From Bacteroidales bacterium (GTDB lineage: Bacteria; Bacteroidota; Bacteroidia; Bacteroidales; UBA12077): a stretch of DNA of 64,000 bases. The translations under genes were made by a program, and so were the position numbers. Positions 40,643 to 59,079 of this stretch are shown one piece after another. Below the pieces are notes generated by a model. The model saw nothing but the letters and a program-made list of their open reading frames with translations. It did not search any database and had not been told where the DNA came from. Every line of letters begins with the position of its first letter. The first letter of the stretch is position 1. The stretch is taken from positions 63,909-127,908 of the forward strand of contig JAHOYT010000011.1 in assembly GCA_019038645.1 (NCBI GenBank), given 5' to 3'.

Positions 40643-41023
40643 ATGGAAACAATTTCAATGATTGGTGCAACAATTGTGACACTTGCCTTAATTTCATATT
40701 CCGTTGGTGTTATTGCCGAACAAAAACAAAAGCGGATTATCAAAACAGTTTTGATTTTTATCACACTTGGAATAGTACTCGATGTAACAGCAACCATTTG
40801 TATGATAGTGGGCTCATCAAATACTCCATTTACTTTGCATGGTTTTCTTGGGTATTCCGCTTTAGTTGCTATGCTAATTGACGTGATACTGATCTGGAAA
40901 TTTTATAATAAAAACGGTTCAGGTGCTGATGTGCCGCGATCCTTACATTTATATACTTTAATCGCCTATTTGTGGTGGGTTATTGCTTATATTACCGGAA
41001 GTGCTCTTGTTATGATCAAATAA
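40643..41023 (+). CDS. Small 4-TM membrane protein (possibly HsmA/TIGR03987-like)
   Basis: 126 aa, four hydrophobic helices, His residues inside helices (FTLHGFLGY, SLHLYT). The family name is a weak recollection. Confidence 0.4.
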   Translation: METISMIGATIVTLALISYSVGVIAEQKQKRIIKTVLIFITLGIVLDVTATICMIVGSSNTPFTLHGFLGYSALVAMLIDVILIWKFYNKNGSGADVPRSLHLYTLIAYLWWVIAYITGSALVMIK

Positions 41024-41057
41024 TTTTTGAAATTATCAGGACGCATCATTAGAAGTA

Positions 41058-41071
41058 TTGATAATTATCAA
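41058..41071. promoter_or_regulatory. Perfect FNR/CRP-type box TTGAT-N4-ATCAA upstream of the ImcH-like gene
   Basis: TTGATAATTATCAA, centred about 90 nt upstream of the ATG at 41155. Confidence 0.55.
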
Positions 41072-41154
41072 TGCACTAAAAATTAGCATGTTGTAAATTG
41101 GTTTTAATTAGCAATATTCGTAACTTGAAAGTATAATTATACAAACTTTCGGTT

Positions 41155-42657
41155 ATGAAATTACCTCGATCATATTATAATTTGCTATCCTTTATTGGTA
41201 CTACAATAGCAGGAATAAGCCTGTTCATGATTCTTTATCTTTTTGCTGTTTCTTTCTTTTTTGAAAGAACCAGCTCCTATTTAGGGTTATTCATTTATAT
41301 TATTGTACCTGTTTTTATGGTATTTGGCCTTATCTTAATCCCCCTGGGGATGTCAATCGAGATAAGAAAAAGAAAAAAGAAAGGCAAAGAATATCTTCAA
41401 AAAGCGTGGCCTGTAATTGACCTGAATATTTCCAGGTATCGTAATGCTATTATCATATTCTCAATTGGCTCATTATTCTTTCTTTTTTTAACTGGAGTTG
41501 GTAGTTATGAGGCATTTCACTATACAGAATCAGTCGAATTTTGCGGTAAATTGTGCCATGAAGTTATGGAACCTGAGTATGTAGCTTACCAAAATTCATC
41601 ACATTCACGGGTAGCTTGTGTTGATTGTCATGTTGGTTCCGGTGCAGATTGGTATATGAGATCAAAACTATCTGGTTTAAGACAGGTGTATGCCGTGTTA
41701 ACCGATAATTTTTCCCGCCCTATTGAAACTCCGGTAAAAGATTTAAGGCCGGCCAGAGAAACATGTGAAGAATGCCACTGGCCTCTGAAGTTCTATGAAA
41801 GGCGATTAAGACATTCTAAGCATTATTTAACCGACAGTCTGAATACAGAATTGAACATTAGTATGCAAATGAAAATTGGTCCAACTCATAGTGCTCTTGG
41901 TCTGACTGAAGGTATTCACTGGCACATAAATCCTGATGTGAAAATCGAGTATATATCAAGAAATGATGACAGGGAAAATATACCATGGGTAAAATATACA
42001 AATCTTGCCGATAAAACAGTAACAATTTATGAAGATATCAGGGAGCCTTTGAAGCAAGTGAATATCGAATCGTCTGTTACCAGAGAAATGGATTGTATTG
42101 ACTGTCACAACAGACCATCACATCATTATTTAACACCACAGGAATTTGTTGACAATGCTATTGCTTCGGGAGTTATTCCTCAGGATTTACCTTTTATTAA
42201 GAAAATTGCAATGGATTTATTTATTGAACCTTTTGAGAGAAGTGATACTGCTCTTGTTGTAATAGAAAATCATATAAATGAATTTTATAAGAGTTACAAT
42301 TCATTGAATAAAGAGCTTCTTACTAACAAAATAGACAATGCAATAAATGGATTGCAAGAAGGTTTTAGTACGAATATTTTTCCCGAAATGGGAGTTAGCT
42401 GGGATGAATATCCAGATCATATAGGACACAAGACATATAACGGTTGCTTTAGATGTCATAGTGACAATCATGTTAGTAAAGAGGGTCAAACAATAAGTAA
42501 AGATTGTAATCTTTGTCATACCATTGTAATGCAGGGAAGAGTAGGAGAAGAATCAATAGCTTTTGTTAATGATTCTTTGGAATTTATACATCCTGTAGAT
42601 ATAGAAGGTGTTTGGAAAGAAGAACTATGTATGGAGTGCCACAGGTACTTATATTAA
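41155..42657 (+). CDS. Inner-membrane multihaem cytochrome c with NapC/NirT-like region (ImcH-like), 7 haem motifs
   Basis: Three N-terminal TM helices. Motifs: CGKLCH (CxxxCH), CVDCH, CEECH, CIDCH, CFRCH, CNLCH, CMECH. The NapC/NirT-like context FCGKLCHEVMEPEYVAYQNSSHSRVACVDCHVG is present. Confidence 0.75.
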   Translation: MKLPRSYYNLLSFIGTTIAGISLFMILYLFAVSFFFERTSSYLGLFIYIIVPVFMVFGLILIPLGMSIEIRKRKKKGKEYLQKAWPVIDLNISRYRNAIIIFSIGSLFFLFLTGVGSYEAFHYTESVEFCGKLCHEVMEPEYVAYQNSSHSRVACVDCHVGSGADWYMRSKLSGLRQVYAVLTDNFSRPIETPVKDLRPARETCEECHWPLKFYERRLRHSKHYLTDSLNTELNISMQMKIGPTHSALGLTEGIHWHINPDVKIEYISRNDDRENIPWVKYTNLADKTVTIYEDIREPLKQVNIESSVTREMDCIDCHNRPSHHYLTPQEFVDNAIASGVIPQDLPFIKKIAMDLFIEPFERSDTALVVIENHINEFYKSYNSLNKELLTNKIDNAINGLQEGFSTNIFPEMGVSWDEYPDHIGHKTYNGCFRCHSDNHVSKEGQTISKDCNLCHTIVMQGRVGEESIAFVNDSLEFIHPVDIEGVWKEELCMECHRYLY

Positions 42658-42683
42658 TTCATACCAGCTTATTAGTACACAAG

Positions 42684-42720
42684 AAAAACTCCTCAGTTCT
42701 GAATATACTGAGGAGTTTTT
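42684..42720. terminator. Bidirectional terminator between the ImcH-like gene and the tetrahaem gene
   Basis: AAAAACTCCTCAG ... CTGAGGAGTTTTT (13-bp stem flanked by A and T runs). Confidence 0.8.
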
Positions 42721-42739
42721 ATATAATTTGTAATGAGAT

Positions 42740-43261
42740 TTATTGTGTTAAAGGGTTTGGATGAGCGATTTTTGCTACAGCCTCTTCATAATTGAATTCT
42801 TTATAAGTAGGACTCTCTTCATTATGACATGTTACACAAACAGCTTCTACAGGTAAAATCAGGCCATTATCTAAACTCTTTTGCTGATCTTTCATAACAG
42901 ACATAGACTTATATTTACTTCCTGGTCCATGGCATGATTCACATGAAACACCTTCTTTGGCAGTAATTGTTAACATTAGATCTTCGCTGGCTGCATGATA
43001 AGTTGAGTGACACTTTAAACATTTTGGATCATTTTGTGGATCATCTGAGAATTTTTTTGATTCTTCGCTTGCCAATGTTTCATATGCTTTTGCATGAAGT
43101 TTACTTTTCCATGTGTCGTATTGTTTACCTTTTGCCTCTTTATTATGGCACATTTTACATTTCGCAGCACCAATATATTCATAATCTTGTGCCTTTGACA
43201 GACTAACTACAAGAAAAACAGAACAGGCAATTAATAATAATTTTTTTAAATTCATAATCAT
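42740..43261 (-). CDS. Periplasmic tetrahaem cytochrome c (c554-like family)
   Basis: Signal peptide plus CKMCH, CLKCH, CESCH (in GVSCESCHGPGS) and CVTCH. Confidence 0.8.
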   Translation of the reverse strand: MIMNLKKLLLIACSVFLVVSLSKAQDYEYIGAAKCKMCHNKEAKGKQYDTWKSKLHAKAYETLASEESKKFSDDPQNDPKCLKCHSTYHAASEDLMLTITAKEGVSCESCHGPGSKYKSMSVMKDQQKSLDNGLILPVEAVCVTCHNEESPTYKEFNYEEAVAKIAHPNPLTQ

Positions 43262-43473
43262 TTCCTTTCATTTATAAATTAATAATTCGCTATTTTTTTG
43301 TTTTATTAAGTCATTCTTTAATCCAAAAATAGCACTTTTAAATTATTACACAAATTAAAATGCCATTTACTTATCTTATTATTGTCTTTTAAATAAATAT
43401 GAATACATGCATCTATGTATATAATTGCTAGTTAAATATAAAATAAAAAATTGGATGACAGTTATTTAATAAT

Positions 43474-43506
43474 AAAAATTCTCATGTAAATTACATGAGA
43501 ATTTTT
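43474..43506 (-). terminator. Terminator after the cytochrome b gene, separating it from the tetrahaem gene
   Basis: AAAAATTCTCATGTAA-A-TTACATGAGAATTTTT palindrome. Confidence 0.7.
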
Positions 43507-43536
43507 AATTATAATTAAAAATTAATTGCAAGTTTT

Positions 43537-44157
43537 TTATTCCGCTTCATGGTATCCTGTTATGATACTTTTAAAGTTTTTTAGAGGATGCTTACCGATA
43601 GTAATTACGTATAAATGAATTATTAAAAAAATCAGGATAAAAAATCCTGCAATCGAATGGAAGAAAGTAGTTAATCTAATTCCACTCATATCATAGAATT
43701 TTTCAATAATCATTTCAGGAAATAATAATGCAACACCTGTAATTATAACCACAGGAACTAACAGATACATTGTCCCAAAGTAAGATACCTTTTGTAGTGG
43801 GTTAAACTTTTCTTCCTCAGAAATATGAAATGGTTTTGGTTCTCCTTTCAAATATCCAAAAACATAATATTTTCCTTGTTTATATAATCTGTCAATTAAA
43901 CCTTTTAATTTAAGTTTATAATGCTTATTATTTCCGGTAAGAATACCTGCAATGAAAAAGAAAGAATAACTTATTATAATAACAACACCAATAAAATTAT
44001 GCAAAGAAACAGCAGAATTAAATCTTATTAATGGAGATTCTAAATTTGTAAATTGCATACTAATACCTGTAATACCTAAAAGTATTATGCTAATGGCATT
44101 AATTACATGCCATATTCTTAACCAAACAGGATAAAGATATAATCTATTATTGCTCAT
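43537..44157 (-). CDS. Dihaem b-type cytochrome membrane subunit (FdnI/HydC/PhsC-like)
   Basis: 206 aa, 4 TM helices with conserved His residues (RIWHVINA, SLHNFIG, FFHSIAG, IIHLYV). Starts 2 nt after the upstream 7-haem gene. Confidence 0.75.
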   Translation of the reverse strand: MSNNRLYLYPVWLRIWHVINAISIILLGITGISMQFTNLESPLIRFNSAVSLHNFIGVVIIISYSFFFIAGILTGNNKHYKLKLKGLIDRLYKQGKYYVFGYLKGEPKPFHISEEEKFNPLQKVSYFGTMYLLVPVVIITGVALLFPEMIIEKFYDMSGIRLTTFFHSIAGFFILIFLIIHLYVITIGKHPLKNFKSIITGYHEAE

Positions 44158-44158
44158 T

Positions 44159-45085
44159 TTATTTACGTTTAATAATTCTTAAAAATGTATGTAAAAATAT
44201 TCCAGATAATGTAAGGCCAAAAATAATTAAACTAATTAAATTGACATAACTATTTCTATTTGCCCCAATCATATACGCATCATTAAGAATAAATGAATTA
44301 TAAAAGTTAAATTCTGCACGATCTTCTTTTGATTGATGTTTATATAGCTTGTCACGTAAGGATGAATTTGATGAATGACATTCAACGCAATTACGTACAG
44401 CCTGTTCTTTTGGAACAATATGGTGAACCGCATCAGCAGTGTCTGTAACTGCAGTATGACATTCTATGCAACGGACTCTTGAAAAATGTAAAGCCTGATT
44501 TGGTAGCCAATCGTGGGTAGCAATCAATTGAGGATTTTCGTGGGTAGTATATATCTGATATTTATCAACATCATTATGACAGTTTAAACACCTGTTGTTA
44601 TTATATTGAACCAGTTCAGCCATATCAGACTTCACTAATTTATTTGAATGAGGATCATGGCACAACTCACAATTAAAAACATCACCAAAAGCTTCCATAT
44701 GAACGCTTTTTTTCACTTCCGAAGCAATTACCTCAAAAGCATGGCAATCCACACACGTCAGTTTTGGTTCAATTTTTAATTCACAATTATGAGGATAGGT
44801 GTTATACTCCTCGGAATGACAATCTGAACACGCAAGTGCGCTATGTTCTCCATGAAGATAACTAATTGAATCTATAACTAAATAAGGATTCATTAATTTA
44901 CGTTCAGTCAGTTCTGTATTTTCATTATAAAATGAATAATATTTGTGCCCATGGCATTTAAGACAAGTACTATTTGATTCAGGCATTTCAAGTATTTCCT
45001 CATTTTCCTGAGCTTGAACAATAAAATGAAAAGAAAAGAGAAATAAACTGATAATAATCAACTTCGTTGGTAAAACAATTTTCAT
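44159..45085 (-). CDS. Heptahaem cytochrome c with C-terminal membrane anchor
   Basis: Signal peptide. CLKCH, CSDCH, CVDCH, CELCH, CLNCH, CIECH, CVECH. C-terminal TM helix (LISLIIFGLTLSGIFLHTFL). Confidence 0.8.
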   Translation of the reverse strand: MKIVLPTKLIIISLFLFSFHFIVQAQENEEILEMPESNSTCLKCHGHKYYSFYNENTELTERKLMNPYLVIDSISYLHGEHSALACSDCHSEEYNTYPHNCELKIEPKLTCVDCHAFEVIASEVKKSVHMEAFGDVFNCELCHDPHSNKLVKSDMAELVQYNNNRCLNCHNDVDKYQIYTTHENPQLIATHDWLPNQALHFSRVRCIECHTAVTDTADAVHHIVPKEQAVRNCVECHSSNSSLRDKLYKHQSKEDRAEFNFYNSFILNDAYMIGANRNSYVNLISLIIFGLTLSGIFLHTFLRIIKRK

Positions 45086-45317
45086 TTTTAGAATAGATTA
45101 TTTAGGGTTTAAAAAATAAATAATTATTATGTTTTGAATATTTGAAAAAGGATTTTTCAAAATTTATAATTTTACTGATACGCAATTAAATCATTTATTA
45201 TTAATTGACAAAAGATTTGCCTATAAATATTTTAACAAAAAATAACAAACTATAATTTTTATTAGATTTTTCATTGATATTTAGCAGTCATCATGTCAGT
45301 CTAATTAGTGTATAACA

Positions 45318-45332
45318 TTGATATATATACAA
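45318..45332. promoter_or_regulatory. Degenerate FNR-like box in the divergent promoter region of the 7-haem/cyt b operon and the 19-haem gene
   Basis: TTGATATATATACAA. It equals the 51579 box with one extra A. About 80 nt upstream of the ATG at 45408. Confidence 0.3.
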
Positions 45333-45407
45333 ATAATTAGATAGATAAAATTTGATGATTTAACCAAATTAAGATATATTTACTTATATATTCTAATTTT
45401 TAGACAT

Positions 45408-48194
45408 ATGATTTTCAATCAATTTATTCCAAAAAGAAGCATTTGTTTATTTTCAGTTTTATTTTTTTTACAAATATCATTTACATATAGCCAGTCTGAT
45501 GAAGACTGTTTGACGTGCCATGAAGATACTGAACTAACGTCAGAAAAAAATGGAACTACAAAATCAATGTATGTCGATGGGACTATTTTAAAATATTCAG
45601 TTCATAAATCTGTTTCCTGTGCTTCATGTCATAAAGATGCTGATGTAAATGATTTTCCACATGATGAAAATTTAAGTAAAGTTAATTGTGGTGAATGCCA
45701 TGTAAATGCAGATGATAACTTTTATAAAGGGATTCATGGTCTGGCATTGAAATTAGATGAACCACATGCACCTACTTGTAAAGAATGTCATGGTGAGCAT
45801 TTAATATTACATCAGTCAAATCCAAAGTCTTTAACTTATAAAATGAATATCCCGGTTTTATGCGGTAAATGTCATAAAGAAGGAGCTCCTGTTGCGCGTG
45901 CTTATAAAATTACACAACATAATATACTGGATAATTATAGTCAGAGTATTCATGGATTAGGATTATTTAACAGAGGGCTAATTGTTACTGCAACCTGTAA
46001 CAACTGCCATGGTAACCATTTAATTTTATCACATACCAGTCCAAATTCTACTATTTCTGTTAATAATATTGCTGAAACATGTATGCAATGTCATGCCCGA
46101 ATCGAAGATGTTCATACTAAGGTTATAAAAGGTGAATTGTGGGAAGAATCTCCCGGAGCAATTCCAGCTTGTACTAACTGTCATCCTCCTCATAAGATTA
46201 ATACTCAGAACATTATGGCAACCATGTCAGACAAGTCTTGTTTACGTTGTCATAGCGATGATGACATTCACAAGATTGTTGATGGGGAAAAAATATCATT
46301 AAAAGTTGACAGAGCAGATCTGGATAGTTATGAACATAAAAATATAACATGTGTAAAATGTCATACTGATGTTTCACCATATTTAGAAAGACCATGTGAA
46401 ACCGCCATGGATGTAGATTGTGATAATTGCCATGCGGAAGTATCAAGCATATATTTTGCCAGCGGACATGGACAGGCATATTTCAGAAAAGATGAAAATG
46501 CCCCATATTGCACTGATTGTCATGGAAGCCACAAAGTAAGGTCCAGATATGATGAAGAAGCACAGACATACAGAACAAATATACCAAGCCTATGTGGTGA
46601 GTGCCATCAAAAAGATAATAAGGCAATTGAAGGTAAGGGATTAAAAGAACTTGATGCTTATTTGGATTATTCATCAAGCGTGCATGGTAAAAGTCTGGAA
46701 GAAAAAGGATTAACAATAAGTGCTGTTTGTATCGACTGCCATTCAACCCATAATATGCTAAAAGAATCTGATGAAAACTCGTCAGTTCATCCAAAAAATC
46801 TTCCTTCAACATGTGCAAAATGCCACAAACCAATATCTGACGAATATTTAGCAAGCGAACATTCAATTGAACATAATGATCCTGATAAAAAATTCCCGAC
46901 TTGCGCTAACTGTCATTCCGCACATGTTATTTCAAATATAGATCAGGATGAGTTTATGACAGAGATAACTCATCAATGTGGTTCTTGTCATGAAGATTTA
47001 TCGGAAACGTATTTAGATACGTATCATGGTAAGGCTTATCAGTTAGGTTATTTAGAAACTGCAAGATGTTCTGATTGCCATGGAGCTCATAAAATTTTAG
47101 ATGTGAATAATCCTGATTCCGAAGTTGGGATTCATAATATTGTTGCAACCTGTCAAAAATGCCATCCTGATGCAAACGAGAGATTTACAGGCTATTTAAC
47201 ACACGCAACTCATAACGATAAAAGTAAATATCCGGCACTATATTATGCTTTTTGGGCAATGACATTTTTACTTGTTGGTGTTTTTGGATTTTACGGAATT
47301 CATACTCTTTTATGGATTCCAAGGTCTATAATAGAGAGAAGAAAGGAAAAACATGTAAAACCAGAAGGGAAAATAAAATATATCAGGCGATTTGAATATA
47401 GTCAAAGAATCACACACCTTTTTGTAATTATGAGCTTTATTCTCCTTGCAATTACCGGGATGATAATAAAATTTGCACATATGGATTGGGCAAAATTTTT
47501 AGTAAAAGCAATTGGTGGTGCTTATAATGCAAGTATAATTCACAGGTTTGGTGCTGTAATAACGTTTGGTTACTTCGCTTATCATCTTTATTCCCTGATC
47601 AAATTAAAGATTAAACGAAAAAAATCATTTAGGAAATTCATTTTTGGCAGTAATTCATTAATGTTTAATATGCAGGATTGGAGAGATTTGTGGGCAACAT
47701 TAAAATGGTTTGTAGGGAAAAGTCCACGTCCAAATTACGGAAGATGGACATATTGGGAAAAATTTGACTATATGGCTGTTTTTTGGGGAGTAGCTGTTAT
47801 TGGATTTTCCGGATTAATGTTATGGTTTCCTGAGTTTTTCTCAAAGGCGTTACCAGGATGGGTTATTAATGTAGTTCAGATTATTCATAGTGATGAAGCT
47901 TTACTGGCAACAGGTTTTATCTTTACGGTTCACTTTTTTCATACTCATTTCCGCCCTGAAGCTTTTCCAATGGATACTGTTATTTTTACAGGACTTGTTC
48001 CGTTAGAAAATTTTAAAAAGGAAAGACCAAAAGAATATAATGAACTTGTGGAATCTGGTCGTTTGGAAGAACTTGTAGTTGAAAAAGAAATTACAAAATG
48101 GAAATTAAAACTTGTTAAAGCATTTGGATTCTTTTTCGTAGGAATTGGAATTACGTTGGTTATTCTTATAATATATTCTTTACTATCCGGGTAA
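45408..48194 (+). CDS. 19-haem cytochrome c fused to a C-terminal dihaem cytochrome b membrane domain (CbcL-like architecture)
   Basis: 19 CxxCH motifs counted in residues 34-585. Then about 5 TM helices with FdnI/PhsC-like His pattern (RITHLFVI, IIHRFGA, IIHSDEA, TVHFFHTH). Confidence 0.8.
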   Translation: MIFNQFIPKRSICLFSVLFFLQISFTYSQSDEDCLTCHEDTELTSEKNGTTKSMYVDGTILKYSVHKSVSCASCHKDADVNDFPHDENLSKVNCGECHVNADDNFYKGIHGLALKLDEPHAPTCKECHGEHLILHQSNPKSLTYKMNIPVLCGKCHKEGAPVARAYKITQHNILDNYSQSIHGLGLFNRGLIVTATCNNCHGNHLILSHTSPNSTISVNNIAETCMQCHARIEDVHTKVIKGELWEESPGAIPACTNCHPPHKINTQNIMATMSDKSCLRCHSDDDIHKIVDGEKISLKVDRADLDSYEHKNITCVKCHTDVSPYLERPCETAMDVDCDNCHAEVSSIYFASGHGQAYFRKDENAPYCTDCHGSHKVRSRYDEEAQTYRTNIPSLCGECHQKDNKAIEGKGLKELDAYLDYSSSVHGKSLEEKGLTISAVCIDCHSTHNMLKESDENSSVHPKNLPSTCAKCHKPISDEYLASEHSIEHNDPDKKFPTCANCHSAHVISNIDQDEFMTEITHQCGSCHEDLSETYLDTYHGKAYQLGYLETARCSDCHGAHKILDVNNPDSEVGIHNIVATCQKCHPDANERFTGYLTHATHNDKSKYPALYYAFWAMTFLLVGVFGFYGIHTLLWIPRSIIERRKEKHVKPEGKIKYIRRFEYSQRITHLFVIMSFILLAITGMIIKFAHMDWAKFLVKAIGGAYNASIIHRFGAVITFGYFAYHLYSLIKLKIKRKKSFRKFIFGSNSLMFNMQDWRDLWATLKWFVGKSPRPNYGRWTYWEKFDYMAVFWGVAVIGFSGLMLWFPEFFSKALPGWVINVVQIIHSDEALLATGFIFTVHFFHTHFRPEAFPMDTVIFTGLVPLENFKKERPKEYNELVESGRLEELVVEKEITKWKLKLVKAFGFFFVGIGITLVILIIYSLLSG

Positions 48195-48222
48195 TAATTT
48201 TTGTTCGATACTATCTAGACAA

Positions 48223-48256: not shown

Positions 48257-48286
48257 ATTTTAAACAATTAAACTATATTGATTCTT

Positions 48287-49153: not shown

Positions 49154-49188
49154 GATTTTAAATATTTATTTACAATACTTTAATTTTA

Positions 49189-51433: not shown

Positions 51434-51517
51434 AGAGTATTTAAGTTTTGATTGAGTTTATAATTCTTTTGCCAATGTAGTTATACTTCTATATATTTGC
51501 TATTTCTTAGCATTGAT

Positions 51518-51533
51518 TGTTATTTAAATAACA
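51518..51533. promoter_or_regulatory. 16-bp perfect palindrome flanked by direct TTGATT repeats
   Basis: TGTTATTTAAATAACA, with TTGATT at 51513-51518 and 51535-51540. Lies in the divergent region between the hexahaem operon and the Crp/Fnr gene. Confidence 0.3.
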
Positions 51534-51578
51534 GTTGATTATAATCGATCTTTAGAACATTTAACATCAATTTACGTA

Positions 51579-51592
51579 TTGATATATATCAA
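51579..51592. promoter_or_regulatory. Perfect FNR/CRP-type box TTGAT-N4-ATCAA
   Basis: TTGATATATATCAA, centred about 62 nt upstream of the Crp/Fnr ATG (51648) and about 152 nt from the hexahaem gene start (51433). Confidence 0.55.
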
Positions 51593-51647
51593 TAAAGAAA
51601 TTAAGATTTGTATATCTTATTATGTACTTTTCAAAACTCAAAAATTA

Positions 51648-52343
51648 ATGATGGATTTAAATGCTAAGATATCGTGCAAAAATTGTAAACACGGCTGGGG
51701 AAATTTTAAAAATTTAACCGCTAAAGAACTTGAAATAGTAAATGAAAACAGATTTCAGGCTAATTTTCAGGCCGGGGAAATAATTTTTAAACAAGGCTCT
51801 CCTGTATCAAATGCAGTTTTTTTAATAAATGGAATGGCAAAAATATATATAGAGGGTTTTGATAAGAAAAGAATGATGGTGGGTATTGCTAAACCAAAGG
51901 CTTTAATTGCCGGACCGGGTACTTTTGTTGATGATAGACATCATTATTCTGTTGCTGCATTAACTGATGTTACAGCATGTTTTATTAAAATGGATGTTCT
52001 TAAGGATTTTGTGAATACTAATGGTAAATTTGCCGAAGGATGGTTGCGGGATATAAGTCAAAAAGCATTAGGAACGTTTTATAAATTTTTAAGTCACACG
52101 CAAAAAAAAATGCATGGTCGTTTGGCCGAGACATTATTGTATTTAGCTGATGAGGTTCACAATTCAGATGATTTTACGATGCTTTTATCAAGGCAAGAAT
52201 TAGGCGAATTGTCCGGAATGGCTAAAGAAAGTGTTGTTCGGATATTGAAAGATTTAGCACAAGATAATATTATAGAAGATAAATGTCCCCATATTAAAAT
52301 CCTGAATAGGAAAAAGCTTCAAATGATTTCAAATATGGGTTAA
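51648..52343 (+). CDS. Crp/Fnr-family transcriptional regulator
   Basis: cNMP-binding-like beta-roll (FQAGEIIFKQGSPVSNAVFLINGMAKIY) and C-terminal HTH (SRQELGELSGMAKESVVRILKDL). N-terminal CKNC. ATG at 51648. Confidence 0.85.
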   Translation: MMDLNAKISCKNCKHGWGNFKNLTAKELEIVNENRFQANFQAGEIIFKQGSPVSNAVFLINGMAKIYIEGFDKKRMMVGIAKPKALIAGPGTFVDDRHHYSVAALTDVTACFIKMDVLKDFVNTNGKFAEGWLRDISQKALGTFYKFLSHTQKKMHGRLAETLLYLADEVHNSDDFTMLLSRQELGELSGMAKESVVRILKDLAQDNIIEDKCPHIKILNRKKLQMISNMG

Positions 52344-52349
52344 TATGTA

Positions 52350-55300
52350 ATGTATAAAATAAAAATTAAGTTTATGAAAAAGAAAAGTATCTTTCTGTTT
52401 ACTCCTTGGTTTATGGGAGTTTTGTTTATAGTGTTTGCGATGTCAATGGCTTTTGCAACATTTTATGAAAACGATTTTGGTGCAGTTGCGGCCAAAACAT
52501 TAGTTTATAACACTAAATGGTTTGAATTGTTAATGCTTTTAATGGTAATTAATCTTACCGGACAGGTATTTCAGTTTAAGTTATACAAAAGAAAGAAACT
52601 TACTATTTTACTATTTCACGCCGCCTTTGTTTTAATGATAATTGGTGCCGGAATTACACGTTATTTTGGGTTTGAAGGCGTTGTTCATATTCGTGAAAAT
52701 GATTCTCAAAATATTTGTACTTCAACAGATCAGTATTTGCAATTTAATGTTAGTAATTTAGACGGAAATGTTCTTTTTTCCGATTCAAAGAAATTATCTA
52801 TAACATCTGTAAAACAAGAAAAATATCATCAAGATGTAAAAATAGATGATGTAGATTATTCATTAAAATTTACTAACTATTTGACTAATGCAGTAGAGTC
52901 GATAGTTAATGTTGAAAATGGAGAACCTATGGTTTCTGTTTTAATATCAAGAGGAATGATGGGACGACAAACTATATTTTTGAAAAAAGGTGAAATTAAA
53001 AATGTGGGTGGAATTATGTTTGGTTTTGGCGAAGATGATTCTGTTGATGTGAGAATTACTATTCAGGATGATGCATTCAAAATACAATCGGAATATCCCA
53101 TTAGCGAAATAAGCATGATGTCGCAAAAAGCAACTATTCATGAACAAGGTGAAGCCATTCCGTTTGAAACTATGAAAATTTACCAGGTTAAAGGTTTATC
53201 TATTGTAGCTGAAGTGTTAAGCAAAAGTGGGGTTGTTAAAGTGGTAAATGCAGATTCCAAAACAAATACAACAAATAAAAGTGCTTTGGTTTTTGAATTG
53301 GTTCACGGAAATAAATTAACTGAATTAATTCTATTGAGAGCGCCGGGAATAAATAATACTACTAGATTTATTAATGGGGAGCATTCTATTGAGGTAAGCT
53401 ATAGTTCATTAGAAGTAGAATTACCGTTTAGCTTAAAGTTGGAAGATTTTATACTGGAAAGATATCCTGGTTCAAGTAGCCCTTCATCCTATAAGAGTGA
53501 TGTTGTATTAATAGATGAAAAGGAGGGTGTAAATATGCCTTATTCTATTTATATGAATCATATATTAAAATATAAGGGTTGGAGATTTTATCAATCGTCA
53601 TACGATCAGGATGAAAGAGGAACAATTTTATCTGTGAACAGAGATTTTGCAGGAATGTTTGTTACATATGTCGGATATTTTATATTATTCTTATTTATGG
53701 TACTATCATTGATTAATAAAAATTCAGCTTTTCGAACAGTTACTAAAAACTTTTTTAGATCAACTTCAGGTAAAGTAGTCAGTTTATTATTTTTATTTCT
53801 AAGTTCTTCATTACTGGCAAGTTCTCAAAATCAGAAATTAGTAGTACCCAAATCTCTTTCCAATGAGTTTGGAAAAGTATTAGTTCAGAATCAGAAAGGA
53901 AGAACTGAACCTATTTACGCTTTAAGCAACGATATTTTAAGAAAAGTAACCAAAGAAACAGAATTCGACGGGTATTCACCAATGCAGGTGTTTTTAGGAT
54001 TCTATTTTGATTTTCATAACTGGCAAAAGGTTCCGTTAATTAAAATTTCTAATGTTGATGTAAAAAAAGCAATTGGTATTAATGGAGATTATGCTGCATT
54101 TTCAGATATTGTTGATTTGCAGGAAAATAGTTATAAATTAAAACAATATGTGGATGCTGCTTATGCAAAGCCATCAGGAGCCAGAAATAAGTTTGATAAG
54201 GAAATTATTAAAGTAGATGAGCGCTTGAATATTTGCTTCATGATTTACTCAGGTGAGTTCATGAAAATATTACCGGTTAAAGATCATTCAATGAAATGGC
54301 ATTCACCAAAAGATGCTTATACATTTGTTGCAAACGCTGATGATTCACTGTACTTAAGAAATATTGTTGGTTTATTTGCTCAGGGAGTTGATATAGCGAA
54401 TACCTCTGGTGATTATACTCAGGCTAATGAAACTTTAAAATCAATAATTAATTATCAGAGAAATTTTGCGCAATATGAATTGCCGGATACAAGAAAGGTA
54501 AATGCGGAAATACTCTATTATAAATCCAAAATTTATGATAAACTTTTCCCTTTTTATGCTTCTATTGGATTGCTTCTTTTATTTATTCTGCTTTATGGAA
54601 TAATATCTCAGAACAAAAATCTTGGACTAATAATTAAAATTTTTACAGGACTTCTTATTGTAGGTTTTGTTTTTCATACAATGGGATTGACTATTCGATG
54701 GTATGTTTCGGGCCATGCACCAATGAGTAATGGTTATGAATCAATGATTTTTATTTCCTGGGTAACTATATTGGCCGGATTCTTTTTTGGTAAGCGATCT
54801 TCATTTGTTTTGGCTGCAACATCTGTTTTAGGTGGTTTTACACTTATGGTAGCACATTTAAGTTTTATGGATCCACAAATAACAAATCTGGTTCCGGTGT
54901 TGCAATCTTATTGGTTAACAATTCACGTTTCTGTTATTACAGGTAGCTACGGATTCTTAGGTTTAGGTGCTATAATAGGAATTATTGTACTAATTCTTTA
55001 TTCAATGATCTCGGAAAGTAATAAAGCAAATATATTATCAACAATAGAAGAGCTAACAATTATTAATTACAAAGCATTGACTATTGGCTTATATCTTCTT
55101 ACTATCGGAACTTTTCTGGGAGCTATTTGGGCTAATGAATCATGGGGCAGATATTGGGGTTGGGATCCAAAAGAAACATGGTCGTTGATTACAATTATTG
55201 TTTATAGTTTTGTTATTCACTCCAGAATGATAAAGGAATTAAAAGGATTTTATGCTTTTAATGTAATTTCATTATTTGCATTCTCTTCTGTGTTAATGAC

Positions 55301-55463
55301 CTATTTCGGTGTGAATTATTATTTGTCAGGATTACACTCATATGCGGGTGGAGATCCTGTGCCTGTACCTAAGTTTGTTTATGTAAGTATTTTCCTATTA
55401 GTTTCACTATCGATATTGGCTTACCAGAGATACAGGAAAATTTTATTAACAAATACAAAATAG
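52350..55463 (+). CDS. ccsBA: Fused system II cytochrome c synthase CcsBA (ResB + CcsA)
   Basis: N-terminal ResB-like TM and periplasmic domain. C-terminal CcsA with WWD motif WGRYWGWDPKETWS and conserved His. 1037 aa. Alternative start at 52374. Confidence 0.88.
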   Translation: MYKIKIKFMKKKSIFLFTPWFMGVLFIVFAMSMAFATFYENDFGAVAAKTLVYNTKWFELLMLLMVINLTGQVFQFKLYKRKKLTILLFHAAFVLMIIGAGITRYFGFEGVVHIRENDSQNICTSTDQYLQFNVSNLDGNVLFSDSKKLSITSVKQEKYHQDVKIDDVDYSLKFTNYLTNAVESIVNVENGEPMVSVLISRGMMGRQTIFLKKGEIKNVGGIMFGFGEDDSVDVRITIQDDAFKIQSEYPISEISMMSQKATIHEQGEAIPFETMKIYQVKGLSIVAEVLSKSGVVKVVNADSKTNTTNKSALVFELVHGNKLTELILLRAPGINNTTRFINGEHSIEVSYSSLEVELPFSLKLEDFILERYPGSSSPSSYKSDVVLIDEKEGVNMPYSIYMNHILKYKGWRFYQSSYDQDERGTILSVNRDFAGMFVTYVGYFILFLFMVLSLINKNSAFRTVTKNFFRSTSGKVVSLLFLFLSSSLLASSQNQKLVVPKSLSNEFGKVLVQNQKGRTEPIYALSNDILRKVTKETEFDGYSPMQVFLGFYFDFHNWQKVPLIKISNVDVKKAIGINGDYAAFSDIVDLQENSYKLKQYVDAAYAKPSGARNKFDKEIIKVDERLNICFMIYSGEFMKILPVKDHSMKWHSPKDAYTFVANADDSLYLRNIVGLFAQGVDIANTSGDYTQANETLKSIINYQRNFAQYELPDTRKVNAEILYYKSKIYDKLFPFYASIGLLLLFILLYGIISQNKNLGLIIKIFTGLLIVGFVFHTMGLTIRWYVSGHAPMSNGYESMIFISWVTILAGFFFGKRSSFVLAATSVLGGFTLMVAHLSFMDPQITNLVPVLQSYWLTIHVSVITGSYGFLGLGAIIGIIVLILYSMISESNKANILSTIEELTIINYKALTIGLYLLTIGTFLGAIWANESWGRYWGWDPKETWSLITIIVYSFVIHSRMIKELKGFYAFNVISLFAFSSVLMTYFGVNYYLSGLHSYAGGDPVPVPKFVYVSIFLLVSLSILAYQRYRKILLTNTK

Positions 55464-55825: not shown

Positions 55826-56521
55826 TTAACCTGTTTCACTTATTCTTTTTAAACGGTTGTAATCAATTATTTTGAGTTTCTTCCCTTCAATTTCAATTAA
55901 TTTATCTTCTTTAAACTTTTTTAGCATTCTTATAACAGTTTCTGCACTCATCGTCGATAATTCCGCAATATCTTTGCGTGACAATACCAAATCAAACTCT
56001 CTTTCTTTAAAAACTCTGTCAGACAAACACAAAATAATATCAGCTAATCTTCCGTATGATTGTTTGTGAGTAAGACAAAAAAAGCGACTATTAATTTGAA
56101 CACTTTTTGCACTTAAGATATCAATAATGCTTTTTGCAAAGCCAGAATTCTTATTTAGTAATTTTCTGAAAGCTACAACATTAATTTGATTTACTATAGT
56201 ATCCACATAAGCCATTGCTGAATATTGAAAAGTAGTATATTCTTCATTAACTGAAGTTAGTCCAAGCATGCTTCCTTCGGGAATCATTTTTAAAACTAAA
56301 GAATTAATCCCGTCATCAATATAAACTTTAATCAACCCACTCTCAACAGACATGATGTGTGATGCATAACTCCCTTGTTTGCATATAATCTCTCCCTTTT
56401 TGTATTTTATCTTTACTGTATTCTCATCCAGAAATTTCGTTTCTTTTTTATTCAATTTATCAAAACATATACAGGGATCTAAACTTATAGTACAACCCGA
56501 ATATTGAATTTCCTTCGCCAT
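55826..56521 (-). CDS. Crp/Fnr-family transcriptional regulator (Cys-rich N-terminus)
   Basis: N-terminal C10/C17/C19 (GCTISLDPCIC), cNMP-like beta-roll, C-terminal HTH (SRKDIAELSTMSAETVIRMLKKF). Confidence 0.85.
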   Translation of the reverse strand: MAKEIQYSGCTISLDPCICFDKLNKKETKFLDENTVKIKYKKGEIICKQGSYASHIMSVESGLIKVYIDDGINSLVLKMIPEGSMLGLTSVNEEYTTFQYSAMAYVDTIVNQINVVAFRKLLNKNSGFAKSIIDILSAKSVQINSRFFCLTHKQSYGRLADIILCLSDRVFKEREFDLVLSRKDIAELSTMSAETVIRMLKKFKEDKLIEIEGKKLKIIDYNRLKRISETG

Positions 56522-56559
56522 ATCTTAATATTATCGTTTGAATTGCAAATATACACAAA

Positions 56560-56579
56560 TCAGTTTTAAAACTGATTCA
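56560..56579. promoter_or_regulatory. Perfect 20-bp palindrome in the divergent regulator / decahaem promoter region
   Basis: AATCAGTTTTAAAACTGATT, between the Crp/Fnr gene (start 56521) and the decahaem gene (start 56712). Confidence 0.4.
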
Positions 56580-56711
56580 CATCATGTATAAAAATGCATC
56601 GAATCATATTTTTTTATTGCGCATGGCTACCCCAAAAACTTTGCCAGTTCTGGGGAAACGCTCATCTTTATACTCAAATAAAAAAGTCTTTTATATTATA
56701 ATATTAATAAC

Positions 56712-58067
56712 ATGAAAAACAAATTCGCCAAACCAGGTTTTTTGATTTTAATAGCAGTTTTAATTGGAATAAACTACAGTTGTTCTAATAAAACAATTGA
56801 GGTATTTGAAGAAAAAATGACTGTTGCATCCTGTGAAGGATGTCATATTAACTATGCACATTTACAGGAAATATATACACCTGATACTGCTGCTCCGGCA
56901 GGAGGTTGCGGTGGAGAAGCTCCTCATTATGAGCCTTATGATAGAGTTTACATGGGAGGTGCGGGTTACGCTGATTTTAAAAAAACAGTACATTATAACA
57001 TGGGCTGTATTGCCTGTCATAACGGAACTGATAACACATCAGATAAAGATGTAGCTCATTCCGGCGATTTTATTTCTCATCCTTCGCTGTATTATGAAGA
57101 AAAATGCGGTGATTGTCATGACGAAATCACTAATAACTATGTGACAAGTATTCATAACGGAACAGGCCAAAAAAGAGCAGTTACGATGCGAAGCGGTTTA
57201 AGTGGTGCTGAAGAATTTGATCTGTTACCTGAACATCAAATTGAAGGTTATAATGCTAATTGTGCTACTTGCCATGGTACTTGCGGAAATTGTCACGTTT
57301 CCCGACCTGCAATTGCTGGTGGTGGTCTTTCAAATGGCCATGCTTTTACTAAAACTCCTGATATGGTAGACATTTGTATTAGTTGCCATACATCAAGAGG
57401 CGGGCATGCCTATTTAGGTGTAGCAATAGGAACTGTGCCTGATGCACACTTAACAAATAATGGATATGATTGTATGGATTGTCATACCGGTGCAGAATTA
57501 CATGGCGATGGAAATCCGGTAGATCAAAGATATGCATATAGTGAATTACCTACATGTGATAAATGCCATACTGATATTGCAACTGAAAACGATTACCATT
57601 CTATGCATTATGATGATTTCAATTGCCAGGTTTGTCACTCGCAGGATTATAATAATTGTGGTAGTTGCCATGTACATGGTGATGGAGCACGTGTTCCATC
57701 GTATTTAGGATTTAAAATTGGGGTTAACCCGATTCCTGATATTAAAACTGATTTCAACTTTGTATTATTGAGAAGAACTTTGGCTGCACCTGATAATTGG
57801 AAAGAATATGGAGTTGAAAGTTATGCCAACTTTGATGTTTTACCAACATATAATTATACCTCACCGCATAATATTTTAAGATGGACAACCAGAACCCAGG
57901 TTGATGGATCTGATTGTACAACAAGCTGCCATATCAGAGATGAGGATGGAGTATTAATCAATAAGGAATTATACTTATTTCAGGAGGATTTAGTAGAAGA
58001 CTGGGAATTAAGCGCAACAACTGGAATTACGGTTGATGGGAAATTACCTGGAACATGGACAAAATAA
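56712..58067 (+). CDS. Decahaem (10 CxxCH + 1 CxxxCH) cytochrome c lipoprotein
   Basis: Lipobox NYSC. CEGCH, CIACH, CGDCH, CATCH, CGNCH, CISCH, CMDCH, CDKCH, CQVCH, CGSCH, plus CTTSCH. Confidence 0.8.
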   Translation: MKNKFAKPGFLILIAVLIGINYSCSNKTIEVFEEKMTVASCEGCHINYAHLQEIYTPDTAAPAGGCGGEAPHYEPYDRVYMGGAGYADFKKTVHYNMGCIACHNGTDNTSDKDVAHSGDFISHPSLYYEEKCGDCHDEITNNYVTSIHNGTGQKRAVTMRSGLSGAEEFDLLPEHQIEGYNANCATCHGTCGNCHVSRPAIAGGGLSNGHAFTKTPDMVDICISCHTSRGGHAYLGVAIGTVPDAHLTNNGYDCMDCHTGAELHGDGNPVDQRYAYSELPTCDKCHTDIATENDYHSMHYDDFNCQVCHSQDYNNCGSCHVHGDGARVPSYLGFKIGVNPIPDIKTDFNFVLLRRTLAAPDNWKEYGVESYANFDVLPTYNYTSPHNILRWTTRTQVDGSDCTTSCHIRDEDGVLINKELYLFQEDLVEDWELSATTGITVDGKLPGTWTK

Positions 58068-58113
58068 ATAAATTAATCAATAAATATGTTTTACAAAAAT
58101 TAAAATTATTATT

Positions 58114-59079
58114 ATGAAAAACACAAAAATTTTATTATTAAGTATTTTATCAGCTTTTTTATTCTTTGCATCTTGTGATGACGATGATCCGGTAGTAAAT
58201 GAATCTGAAGTTCTTGTTGAATATCTTGAAACAACAGGAGGAACAGTAGTTAATACTTTCCCTGTTATGATTAAAACATCAGATGTAAATACGGGAAATT
58301 TAACTGAAGCGGATCAATATGTTATTGATATCAGATCTGCCACAGATTATGCAACAGGACACATTGAAGGAGCTGTTAATGTTGCAGCTGGAGAAGTCCT
58401 TGCACATTATGAAGCAAATAACCTGGAAAGTTATACAACTGTTGCTATTGCTTGCTATAGTGGCCAATCTGCAGGATGGGTAAACGGACTGTTATACACA
58501 ATGGGTTACACGAATACAAAAGACATGAAATGGGGAATGTGTGGTTGGAATGAAACAACTTCCGGATCATGGACATCTAATATTGGTAATAATTATGCTT
58601 CTGCTTTAGTTACTGATGTTACTGCAAAAGCTGAAGAAGGAAGTCTTCCAAAATTAAGCACAGGGGTAACTGATGCTGAAGATATTTTAAGAGCAAGAGT
58701 TGAGGCTGTTTTTGCTGAAGGCTTTAGTGAAGCTGCAGTTTCGGCTTCTACTGTTTTTACTACACCAGACGATTATTATATTGTTAATTACTGGAGCGAA
58801 GATCATTACAGCTGGGGTCATATCCCGGGAGCAATTCAATATAGTCCGGGAGCTACTTTAACTTCAGATACTTTCCTTAAGACTCTTCCAACTGACAAGC
58901 CTATTGCAGTTTATTGCTATACTGGTCAGACATCAGCTCACGTTGCTGCTTATTTACGAGTTTTAGGATATGACGCAAAATCAGTTAAATTTGGTGTTAA
59001 TGGAATGTCTTATGATGCTATGCCAGGAACTAAGTTTATAGAAGAGACTGATGTTCATGATTATGAATTAGTTCAATAA
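58114..59079 (+). CDS. Tandem-rhodanese-domain lipoprotein
   Basis: Lipobox FFASC. Two rhodanese active-site loops, CYSGQSA and CYTGQTS, each preceded by a GHI(E/P)GA motif. Confidence 0.8.
   Translation: MKNTKILLLSILSAFLFFASCDDDDPVVNESEVLVEYLETTGGTVVNTFPVMIKTSDVNTGNLTEADQYVIDIRSATDYATGHIEGAVNVAAGEVLAHYEANNLESYTTVAIACYSGQSAGWVNGLLYTMGYTNTKDMKWGMCGWNETTSGSWTSNIGNNYASALVTDVTAKAEEGSLPKLSTGVTDAEDILRARVEAVFAEGFSEAAVSASTVFTTPDDYYIVNYWSEDHYSWGHIPGAIQYSPGATLTSDTFLKTLPTDKPIAVYCYTGQTSAHVAAYLRVLGYDAKSVKFGVNGMSYDAMPGTKFIEETDVHDYELVQ

Follow-up and report, generated by a model that had tools for sequence, protein, structure and literature searches.

A haem c gene island made of two cassettes

The window analysed here is a stretch of 64,000 nucleotides from a Bacteroidales bacterium of the UBA12077 lineage (GenBank assembly GCA_019038645.1, contig JAHOYT010000011.1, positions 63,909 to 127,908 of the forward strand). 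Our subject is an island of about 18 kb within it (window positions 40643-59079), where eight genes for c-type cytochromes carry 54 CxxCH and 2 CxxxCH motifs in their open reading frame (ORF) translations, i.e., 56 haem sites. These genes encode an ImcH-like protein (41155-42657, + strand; 6 CxxCH and a CxxxCH at residue 130), a tetrahaem cytochrome (42740-43261, − strand; 4 CxxCH), a CbcA-like heptahaem cytochrome (44159-45085, −; 7), a CbcL-like fusion (45408-48194, +; 19), two monohaem lipoproteins, c1a (49189-49542, −) and c1b (49856-50242, −), with one CxxCH each, a hexahaem lipoprotein (50312-51433, −; 6), and an undecahaem lipoprotein labelled c10 (56712-58067, +; 10 CxxCH and a CxxxCH at residue 402). 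An earlier note on this DNA had counted the motifs in the same eight ORFs, and its counts match ours exactly. CxxCH occurs 54 times in 5,418 residues within the island versus once in 13,265 residues of the remaining window ORFs, and shuffled cytochrome sequences gave a mean of 0.27 motifs with a maximum of 3. The cluster of haem motifs is real and far above chance.

Family searches bore out the other parts that the earlier note had named among the cytochrome genes: two cytochrome b modules (PF01292 in 43537-44157 and in the C-terminal domain of 45408-48194), a small outer-membrane beta-barrel, a fused CcsBA haem lyase combining ResB and CcsA, two Crp/Fnr regulators recognized by Pfam and NCBIfam, and a lipoprotein with a lipobox and two rhodanese domains (PF00581). 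The layout it had described, running from inner-membrane quinol oxidases through a periplasmic cytochrome to an outer-membrane barrel and lipoprotein cytochromes, with maturation and regulation of its own, is supported as well. It had also recognized no catalytic terminal reductase, and indeed the island has no molybdopterin, NrfA-type CxxCK, Hao, or Dsr signature; no ORF in 40643-59079 matches a molybdopterin catalytic subunit or a 4Fe-4S subunit of the Psr, Phs, or Ttr kind in Pfam or NCBIfam. Recent horizontal acquisition was considered, but because G+C content is flat over the island (29-36%) there is no sign of it, and core genes flank the island on both sides. A scan for promoter consensus sequences gave 114 matches against 105 expected, which is not above background, and an Rfam search of the window returned only tRNAs.

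The earlier note had read the island as one block, and this did not survive comparative genomics, which resolves it into two independent cassettes: module B (40643-55463) and module A (55826-59132). Taking one genome per species of the Genome Taxonomy Database, we assembled 76 loci with a relative of the 451-residue undecahaem cytochrome (55-78% identity); loci are given here by L numbers. All are from metagenome-assembled genomes (MAGs), nearly all of Bacteroidota, with one labelled Kapabacteria. Neighbourhoods covered 10 kb on each side; every island protein was searched against them by tblastn, and the ORFs of the loci were clustered all against all. A triplet made of a divergent Crp/Fnr gene, the undecahaem gene, and the tandem rhodanese gene, 55-78% identical, recurs in about 69 out of 78 loci, and the other island genes lie within 10 kb of it in 7-9 loci only. 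Module B also stands by itself, with no undecahaem or rhodanese gene nearby, in L080, L081, and L082. The order there is Crp, hexahaem, c1-type monohaem gene, barrel gene, and CbcA-CbcB or NrfC-NrfD, followed by an optional 19-haem protein and tetrahaem, the ImcH-like gene, and CcsBA. L080 even shares the hydrogenase-side flank of the window, with other genes in the place of module A.

The two cassettes nevertheless keep company. Leaving the triplet aside, the genes that recur most often near the undecahaem gene are those of module B, and no other recurrent neighbours of module A were found except biotin carboxylase/carboxyltransferase housekeeping genes in one clade. The linkage takes three layouts: that of the window; that of L002, where undecahaem, rhodanese, c1, DUF5777 barrel, CbcA, CbcB, and NrfCD genes form one co-directional string; and that of L039, L052, and L064, with module A inside module B. 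Linkage that is repeated and differently arranged argues for functional coupling. The modules are independent yet repeatedly linked, and each brings an FNR-type regulator of its own. In the same loci, the undecahaem cytochrome keeps 60-78% identity while the hexahaem lipoprotein is only 26-35% identical, so the former is by far the more conserved of the two.

The undecahaem cytochrome and its rhodanese partner

The undecahaem cytochrome is a lipoprotein of 451 residues. Its CxxxCH at 402-407 is invariant and is replaced by CxxCH in distant relatives, and we therefore count eleven haem sites. More than 1,000 homologous sequence clusters exist, the 120 listed being 65-91% identical; the wider family comprises 449 clusters at 50% identity, none of them functionally named. 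The few wider-family members with a named source come from Deltaproteobacteria, Anaerolinea, Sulfurovum, and other MAGs. An AlphaFold2 model (mean pLDDT 84.5) found no fold match in the PDB (best E 2.1), and there was no sequence match there either. Otr, MccA, NrfA, Hao, MtrC, and MccSep were each considered as identities, and sequence and fold searches gave nothing. For MccSep, the sequence search included its chains and found no match, whereas the fold set (to April 2026) may not include it.

Next to this gene lies that of the rhodanese lipoprotein (58114-59079, +), whose mature N-terminus reads C-DDDD. Both of its PF00581 domains have a catalytic cysteine that is 100% conserved in 70 homologues, within the six-residue loops CYSGQS at residue 114 and CYTGQT at residue 268. 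A terminator-like hairpin (59101-59132, +; 14-bp stem followed by a T-run) closes the undecahaem-rhodanese operon. In L003, the rhodanese gene beside the undecahaem gene (11350-12352) is split into three ORFs of 141, 57, and 87 residues, which could be a pseudogene, an assembly error, or recoding.

The rhodanese is no bystander. It is an obligate partner of the undecahaem cytochrome and is fused to it in some lineages. In two proteins, P0166 (652 residues) and P0185 (715 residues), an undecahaem-like domain is followed by a tandem rhodanese at the C-terminus (Pfam E 2e-34 and 1e-37), and rhodanese fragments are found in two further relatives, P0179 and P0165. Nothing speaks more strongly than these fusions for the view that the products of the two window genes act as one unit. 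They are also a plausible origin of the “thiosulfate sulfurtransferase” label that the Joint Genome Institute (JGI) attaches to many undecahaem homologues; the same mislabel has been noted for a multihaem cytochrome beside rhodanese genes in Dethiobacter alkaliphilus, a sulfur and thiosulfate reducer without molybdenum enzymes. With an obligate and sometimes fused rhodanese, sulfur or selenium chemistry is a likely terminal reaction, instead of or besides the reduction of metal oxides.

Other fusions bear on the source of electrons. In P0183, a NapC/NirT quinol-dehydrogenase N-terminus leads directly into an undecahaem-like domain, and further relatives have c554-type domains or a CarboxypepD_reg domain as fusion partners. 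The family is thus a modular component for electron transfer. Together with a locus (L083) in which a distant relative lies beside NrfCD genes, the NapC/NirT and c554 fusions suggest that the undecahaem fold is fed from quinol-oxidizing modules. In L002, a Tenuifilaceae MAG, genes for a cysteine desulfurase-like protein, TusA, Se_S_carrier, and SelD lie just upstream of the regulator-undecahaem-rhodanese triplet (4232-7402). Linkage of SelD, TusA, and Se_S_carrier to module A was seen in L002 only and is not recurrent, and we take it as no more than a hint.

Two known kinds of sulfur-reducing system offer comparisons. The ExtHIJKL/MccSep system of Geobacter consists of a rhodanese lipoprotein (ExtH), a porin-like protein, and a multihaem polysulfide reductase (PMC13510729, PMC6148476). 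The window likewise has a rhodanese lipoprotein beside a multihaem cytochrome of about 450 residues and an outer-membrane barrel in the same island, and reduction of sulfane sulfur or selenite by a haem chain is proposed for both. However, MccSep has five haems, a His/Cys-ligated haem, an in-frame UGA selenocysteine, and a C-terminal Ig-like domain, whereas the undecahaem cytochrome has eleven haem sites in an uninterrupted ORF and lacks selenocysteine. The window rhodanese also has two active domains, unlike the ExtH arrangement, and ExtI is a 21-strand barrel compared with the 288 residues of the DUF5777 protein. In Sud-PsrABC of Wolinella succinogenes and in PhsABC, a rhodanese-type sulfur carrier feeds a membrane-linked reductase, and a cytochrome b of the window scores as PhsC-like. 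Yet the window has neither the molybdopterin subunit (PsrA/PhsA) nor the FeS subunit (PsrB/PhsB) of those enzymes, and the catalytic partner would have to be a multihaem cytochrome. The Dethiobacter clusters of multihaem and rhodanese genes are a precedent for such an arrangement.

Inner-membrane, periplasmic, and outer-membrane parts of module B

The ImcH-like protein has 500 residues, with transmembrane helices (TMHs) at 18-36, 44-62, and 98-116 followed by its seven haem sites. Over the first haems it is related to NapC/NirT (PF03264, E 1.6e-10) and NrfH (TIGR03153, E 3.5e-14; PDB 2j7a_C, E 1.5e-4). Geobacter ImcH has three TMHs within roughly its first 130 residues, seven haems, and a periplasmic domain of about 370 residues in a total of 507. 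Architecture and family-level homology together identify the product of 41155-42657 as a predicted inner-membrane quinol oxidase of the ImcH kind. Immediately upstream is a gene for a small membrane protein of the HsmA family (40643-41023, +; four TMHs; TIGR03987 E 5e-16, below cutoff), a companion not seen in Geobacter. The same pairing recurs in L080 with a 501-residue Cytochrom_NNT protein; the HsmA-family gene there lies at 17354-17734, and genes for HmuY and a TonB-dependent receptor of the haem-uptake type come after. The HsmA-like protein may be a haem-binding membrane partner of the ImcH-like protein or may be tied to haem supply.

A second candidate oxidase is formed by two genes. The CbcA-like protein has a signal peptide, seven CxxCH, and a C-terminal TMH (280-298) with His299 directly after it. 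A single base (44158) separates its stop codon from the start of a CbcB-like dihaem cytochrome b (43537-44157, −), which has four TMHs, histidines at 17, 53, 167, and 181, and a PF01292 match at E 2.3e-25. The latter scores as “thiosulfate reductase cytochrome B” (NF011582, E 2.5e-50, 171 bits versus a cutoff of 204); CbcB itself is annotated as thiosulfate reductase-like, which is a misleading label (bioRxiv 10.1101/2021.04.15.440034). In the otherwise syntenic module B of L080, an NrfC-like (Fer4_11) and an NrfD-like gene (12368-14418) stand where the window has the CbcBA-like pair (43537-45085), and this swap supports a role as quinol oxidase.

The CbcL-like protein (928 residues) joins a 19-haem periplasmic domain, with haems arranged as 8+8+3, to a cytochrome b in its C-terminal third (PF01292 at 593-747; FdnI-like at 657-882, TIGR01583). 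Residues 30-265 and 274-509 are 31% identical (E 5e-43) with the same haem spacing (+37, +23, +30, +28), and the high haem number thus reflects duplication of an eight-haem block. Orthologues at 59-62% identity occur in five loci, and between 3 and 23 haems have been reported for the CbcL/MtrH/MtoC family (PMC6295460).

The tetrahaem cytochrome belongs to the c554 family (PF13435, E 2.4e-16), has a signal peptidase I signal peptide, and is co-conserved in seven loci; we regard it as a candidate soluble periplasmic electron shuttle. It also matches the C-terminal domain of NF041198, a “UshA-like (seleno)protein” (E 1e-22), and a UshA/SoxB-like metallophosphoesterase (cluster 19) lies beside the hexahaem gene in L029, L061, L064, and L065, which suggests a split form of an uncharacterized UshA-tetrahaem enzyme. 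Maturation of the cytochromes can be assigned to the gene at 52350-55463 (+), whose 1037-residue product is identified by its domains as a fused CcsB(ResB)-CcsA System II cytochrome c synthase (PF05140 and PF01578; TIGR03144 at 200.4 bits versus a cutoff of 187.6) and which is also part of module B in L080 and L082.

Geobacter sulfurreducens has ImcH, CbcL, and CbcBA together, and the window likewise has architectural counterparts of all three. In both, CbcBA is a heptahaem protein with a C-terminal TMH beside a four-TMH “thiosulfate-reductase-like” dihaem cytochrome b, and CbcL combines a multihaem domain with a HydC/FdnI-type cytochrome b, although Geobacter CbcL has 9 haems rather than 19. 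Regulation differs, being by sigma54/BccR in Geobacter and by Crp/Fnr proteins only in the island. The claim that the parts resemble no Mtr, Omc, or Pcc components therefore stands in one respect, as no Mtr or Pcc member is present, but fails in another, as the inner-membrane parts match Geobacter ImcH, CbcBA, and CbcL architectures. Such systems had also been called essentially uncharacterized in Bacteroidota. We found no paper that characterizes this Bacteroidales system experimentally or describes an undecahaem-rhodanese module; however, homologues of the ImcH, CbcL, and CbcBA families have previously been reported in Bacteroidetes (PMC6295460; bioRxiv 10.1101/2021.04.15.440034).

Contrary to the supposed lack of resemblance, the hexahaem lipoprotein is a homologue of the surface reductases OcwA (Thermincola potens) and OmhA (S-layer of Carboxydothermus ferrireducens) and of NrfA. 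A profile of 46 members matched OcwA (6i5b, 1.8e-14), OmhA (6qvm, 2e-14), and NrfA (1e-11) in the PDB, and with an AlphaFold2 model (pLDDT 83.8) the top Foldseek hit was OcwA (1.2e-4, TM-score 0.45, probability 1.00), followed by 6qvm and NrfA. A relation to MccSep was considered on a marginal match (E 0.84) and set aside when the profile search gave OcwA, OmhA, and NrfA instead. The shared parts are the haem core and the C-terminal helices (“S.G.HNP.Y”); haem numbers are 6 in the window protein, 9 in OcwA, 11 in OmhA, and 5 in NrfA. Unlike these proteins, it has a lipid anchor, a Gly-X-Y stalk, and a diderm host, and it contains no CxxCK. Five invariant histidines and one nearly invariant histidine outside the motifs serve six haems, i.e., one conserved distal histidine per haem, and together with the missing CxxCK this leads us to read it as a bis-His electron-transfer protein and not an enzyme. 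Straight after the lipid-anchor cysteine, residues 22-50 form about nine collagen-like Gly-X-Y repeats (GPAGIDGIDGTDGIAGVDGVDGATGGDG; entry range 50375-51370) whose glycines are invariant in 46 homologues, one of them named “collagen-like protein” by NCBI. The segment may form a stalk some 8 nm long, or it may serve for trimerization. The 613 homologues are from Bacteroidota, Chlorobi/Ignavibacteria-type, and Marinisomatota MAGs, and the 120 listed are 31-86% identical. We propose that the hexahaem lipoprotein is the distal electron-output cytochrome of module B. A terminator-like hairpin (50263-50294, −; 14-bp stem, then a T-run) follows its gene.

Between the hexahaem and CbcL-like genes lie those of the monohaem lipoproteins and the barrel. 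The barrel (48287-49153, −; 288 residues; PF19089, E 5e-72) belongs to DUF5777, a name that no paper mentions in the literature we searched, and it has no sequence relative in the PDB. It has 1,213 homologues, and the 120 listed all have 245-320 residues with DUF5777 as the only domain, none of them showing the cytochrome fusion that is the signature of Cyc2. His64, His183, and His247 are invariant, as are more than 20 polar residues, which is unusual in a small outer-membrane barrel and may point to a cofactor bound there or to a partner that fits closely. The gene for c1a, with its one CxxCH and a lipobox, lies directly upstream, and c1b is its tandem paralogue (53% identity, E 6e-47). A c1-type gene directly precedes the barrel gene in 10 of 10 loci examined, and in L080 and L081 the two reading frames overlap. 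The paralogues are separated by a very AT-rich spacer of 313 nt (49543-49855) with no ORF and no Rfam match. We infer that the barrel and a monohaem lipoprotein form one redox unit, a kind of split Cyc2, which differs from Cyc2 itself in that cytochrome and barrel are separate genes and not a cytochrome-porin fusion. In MtrCAB, PcoAB/Pcc, and Cyc2, too, an outer-membrane barrel is genetically coupled to one or more c-type cytochromes in a chain from quinol to the surface. However, Mtr and Pcc conduits combine a barrel of at least 20 strands with a periplasmic decahaem cytochrome of the MtrA/DmsE type and a surface one of the MtrC/OmcA type, and an MtrA-like decahaem cytochrome would by no means fit inside the small DUF5777 barrel. 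No MtrA, MtrB, or MtrC homologue scored above family cutoffs, the DmsE and OmcA/MtrC NCBIfam models falling far below theirs.

With these parts, the island could be taken as purely a system for extracellular electron transfer (EET) to metals, minerals, or electrodes. Electrons would go to insoluble Fe(III)/Mn(IV) oxides, to humics, or to partner cells, the undecahaem cytochrome would be part of the same chain, and the rhodanese would be accessory, e.g., in sulfide-mediated iron chemistry or in protection of haems or thiols. In Geobacter, ImcH, CbcL, and CbcBA are the quinol oxidases dedicated to acceptors outside the cell, the closest relatives of the hexahaem lipoprotein are Fe(III) reductases, and module B does occur without module A. 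Homologues of cbcBA have moreover been proposed as EET markers in Prolixibacter, Marinilabiliales, and Labilibaculum (bioRxiv 10.1101/2021.04.15.440034). However, the tie between the undecahaem cytochrome and a two-cysteine rhodanese in about 69 loci, and their fusions in other phyla, would go unexplained, and it is the undecahaem and not the hexahaem cytochrome that is the better conserved. There is also the lesson of ExtKL, long seen as part of a putative outer-membrane conduit, which proved to be a polysulfide reductase (PMC13510729, PMC6148476). On balance, pure metal EET seems to us unlikely.

Regulation, localization, and direction of electron flow

Both cassettes carry signs of control by regulators of the FNR type. 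Only two perfect TTGAT-N4-ATCAA sites occur in the window, where 0.52 would be expected, and both are in module B promoters. One (TTGATAATTATCAA, 41058-41071) is centred 90 nt upstream of the ATG of the ImcH-like gene, and the other (TTGATATATATCAA, 51579-51592) lies in the divergent promoter region of the hexahaem gene and Crp/Fnr regulator 1, where a further box with one mismatch is found at 51535-51548. Regulator 1 (51648-52343, +; PF00027 and PF13545) most likely starts at ATG 51648, giving 231 residues as called in L001, and not at TTG 51579; a Crp gene adjoins the hexahaem gene in L080-L082 as well. Regulator 2, of module A (55826-56521, −; Fnr NF008365, E 6.6e-18), has conserved cysteines at 10, 17, and 19 near the N-terminus and at 47, 149, and 165, a pattern compatible with an FNR-like Fe-S sensor. 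Its gene is divergent from the undecahaem gene in 63-69 loci. The intergenic region holds a palindrome, ATCAGTTTTAAAACTGAT (ATCAGT-N6-ACTGAT, 56559-56576), as candidate operator, and ATCA-N10-TGAT with up to three mismatches was found in 49 of 65 orthologous intergenic regions, mostly at about the same offset from the regulator gene.

We think the island is best read as a composite anaerobic respiratory system in which module B exports electrons and module A is a sulfane-sulfur reductase. The analysis establishes what genes are present, their homologies and architectures, that the two modules are independent but repeatedly linked, and that cytochrome and rhodanese can be fused; we infer which way electrons flow, on which face of the outer membrane each lipoprotein lies, the role of the barrel as conduit, and the identity of the acceptor. 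Upon anoxia, the FNR-type regulators would switch on both cassettes, and CcsBA would mature all 56 haem sites. Menaquinol would be oxidized at the inner membrane by three parallel oxidases: the ImcH-like protein, possibly with the HsmA-like protein, the CbcBA-like pair, and the 19-haem CbcL-like protein. In Geobacter, ImcH, CbcBA, and CbcL serve different potential windows, with CbcBA the lowest (bioRxiv 10.1101/2021.04.15.440034 for CbcBA). From there, electrons would pass to the periplasmic tetrahaem cytochrome and on to an outer-membrane unit of the DUF5777 barrel and monohaem lipoprotein(s). This unit would deliver them either to the OcwA-like hexahaem cytochrome on its collagen-like stalk, as a general output, or to the undecahaem cytochrome; module A has no quinol oxidase of its own and would therefore draw on module B. 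S0, polysulfide, or thiosulfate would give up sulfane sulfur to the tandem rhodanese, which would bind it as a cysteine persulfide (or would accept selenium from selenite), and two electrons from the undecahaem cytochrome would then release sulfide. In the order of their domains and in their numbers of TMHs and haems (19 in the CbcL-like protein), the inner-membrane parts match ImcH, CbcBA, and CbcL, which supports this chain.

Where the lipoproteins lie is central to this scheme. Lipoboxes are present in the hexahaem, both monohaem, the undecahaem, and the rhodanese proteins, and a surface-export signal of Bacteroidetes lipoproteins (LES) has been defined experimentally as C-X-K-(D/E)2 (PMC5080379). 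When the rhodanese N-termini were scored after the cysteine for this signal or for poly-Asp, 65 of 69 were acidic and 34 of 69 matched strictly, which makes surface exposure of the rhodanese likely. Acidic N-termini were found in 56 of 118 undecahaem homologues, and for that protein exposure is plausible. By contrast, neither the hexahaem (C-EGPAG) nor the monohaem lipoproteins match the signal.

The missing signals invite an alternative in which respiration is purely periplasmic. All of the lipoproteins would then face the periplasm, DUF5777 would be a channel for substrate or product like ExtI, and the hexahaem or undecahaem cytochrome would be an enzyme acting on nitrite, sulfite, tetrathionate, polysulfide, or selenite. 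The small barrel, the relation of the hexahaem cytochrome to NrfA, and the ordinary signal peptide of the fused protein P0185 would suit this, and MccSep is itself periplasmic and encoded beside a porin-like protein (PMC13510729, PMC6148476). However, the hexahaem cytochrome has no CxxCK or other open-site signature, only its one conserved distal histidine for each haem, and the rhodanese N-termini fit the export signal. That barrel and monohaem lipoprotein are so closely paired, and that three histidines of the barrel are invariant, likewise suggests redox function and not transport. A wholly periplasmic pathway is in our view quite unlikely.

The direction of electron flow can be considered in light of the surrounding genes. 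On one side of the island is an NADH-dependent group A6 [FeFe] hydrogenase of the HydABC type (36883-40373), and the upstream flank as a whole comprises a tuf-rpoBC cluster, Etf/Bcd genes, and this electron-bifurcating hydrogenase. The Etf/Bcd genes (25330-31387) encode EtfB and EtfA, an FeS/CCG-domain oxidoreductase, and an acyl-CoA dehydrogenase, and look like an electron-bifurcating Bcd/Etf-type system. Further upstream (8935-12036), an XerD-type tyrosine recombinase gene precedes four tRNA genes (Thr, Tyr, Gly, Thr), after which come EF-Tu, tRNA-Trp, and the nusG-rplKAJL-rpoBC cluster. Genes for menaquinone biosynthesis are present in the window (UbiE/MenG, 216-938; a UbiA family member, 32847-33797). 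On the island's other side (59181-63969) is a second set of hydrogenase-related genes, for a HycI protease, a ferredoxin-like protein, a NicO/DsbD_2-like protein with a His-rich loop, and Mrp/Mnh-type antiporter subunits. The sole CxxCH outside the island is found here, in a 135-residue cytoplasmic zinc-ribbon-like protein with no signal peptide (60075-60482), which is not a cytochrome and whose gene is conserved beside hydrogenase genes in L002 and L080. From its gene content, the host looks like a hydrogen-cycling fermenter.

A host of this kind, a fermentative anaerobe in need of electron sinks (HydABC, an Mrp-type membrane hydrogenase module, Etf/Bcd), does not sit well with the reverse direction, in which the rhodanese and undecahaem cytochrome would oxidize sulfide, polysulfide, or thiosulfate and pass electrons to the quinone pool or to extracellular acceptors. 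Rhodaneses and His/Cys or multihaem cytochromes such as TsdA and SoxAX do also serve sulfur oxidation, a c554-type tetrahaem cytochrome is present, and CbcL/MtoC homologues occur in metal reducers and metal oxidizers alike (PMC6295460). Many of the source MAGs, judged by their names, come from sulfidic caves and stratified lakes. However, the regulators are of the FNR type, and the window contains no oxidase, Sox, or rDsr genes. We consider an oxidative role very improbable.

For the composite system of electron export and sulfane-sulfur reduction, several observations weigh on the other side and must be set against its support. For most loci, no module B is found within 10 kb of module A, and distant undecahaem relatives have no rhodanese, one being paired with NrfCD (L083) and another standing alone (L084), so that the undecahaem fold as such is a general electron-transfer module. 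Neither MccSep nor Otr, MccA, or NrfA shows detectable sequence similarity to the undecahaem cytochrome. This cytochrome has more conserved His and Met residues than eleven six-coordinate haems need, which makes counting of distal ligands uninformative for an open site, and no open catalytic site is evident. Menaquinol-driven reduction of thiosulfate or polysulfide is thermodynamically tight. At 288 residues, the barrel is far smaller than MtrB-type conduits. The export signal is found in only about half of the undecahaem homologues and is absent from the other cytochrome lipoproteins, and lipoprotein topology is uncertain as a result. Finally, all homologues are MAG-derived, and the proteins are known from sequence alone. 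Weighing these points, we judge the composite reading as a whole to be evenly poised between right and wrong.

A bolder and narrower proposal is that the undecahaem-rhodanese pair is a new haem-only surface reductase of S0, polysulfide, thiosulfate, or selenite, using neither molybdenum nor selenium and fed through a minimal conduit, a monohaem plug in a His-lined DUF5777 barrel, with both pair and conduit widespread in anoxic sediments and sulfidic waters. This we regard as somewhat doubtful. In the inner-membrane trio and the OcwA-like cytochrome we see new members, or variants, of kinds already known, and the system is not categorically new. It is the undecahaem-rhodanese module and the monohaem/DUF5777 pair that are uncharacterized, widespread, and directly testable.

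These two parts are also where the wider interest lies. More than 1,000 sequence clusters make up the undecahaem family, and the figure for DUF5777 is similar. The pairing of cytochrome and rhodanese, with its fusions, is a candidate for a second sulfur reductase that works with haem, and its sequence shows no detectable similarity to that of MccSep, described recently, while the monohaem-lipoprotein/DUF5777 pair is a compact candidate for a new electron route across the outer membrane, of interest to biogeochemistry and bioelectrochemistry. Bacteroidales are abundant fermenters of sediments, stratified lakes, sulfidic caves, and digesters, and they are usually modelled without a respiratory outlet beyond fumarate or low oxygen. 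If true, a widespread envelope-directed cytochrome chain in these bacteria would call for a new attribution of carbon turnover and sulfur cycling in those environments.

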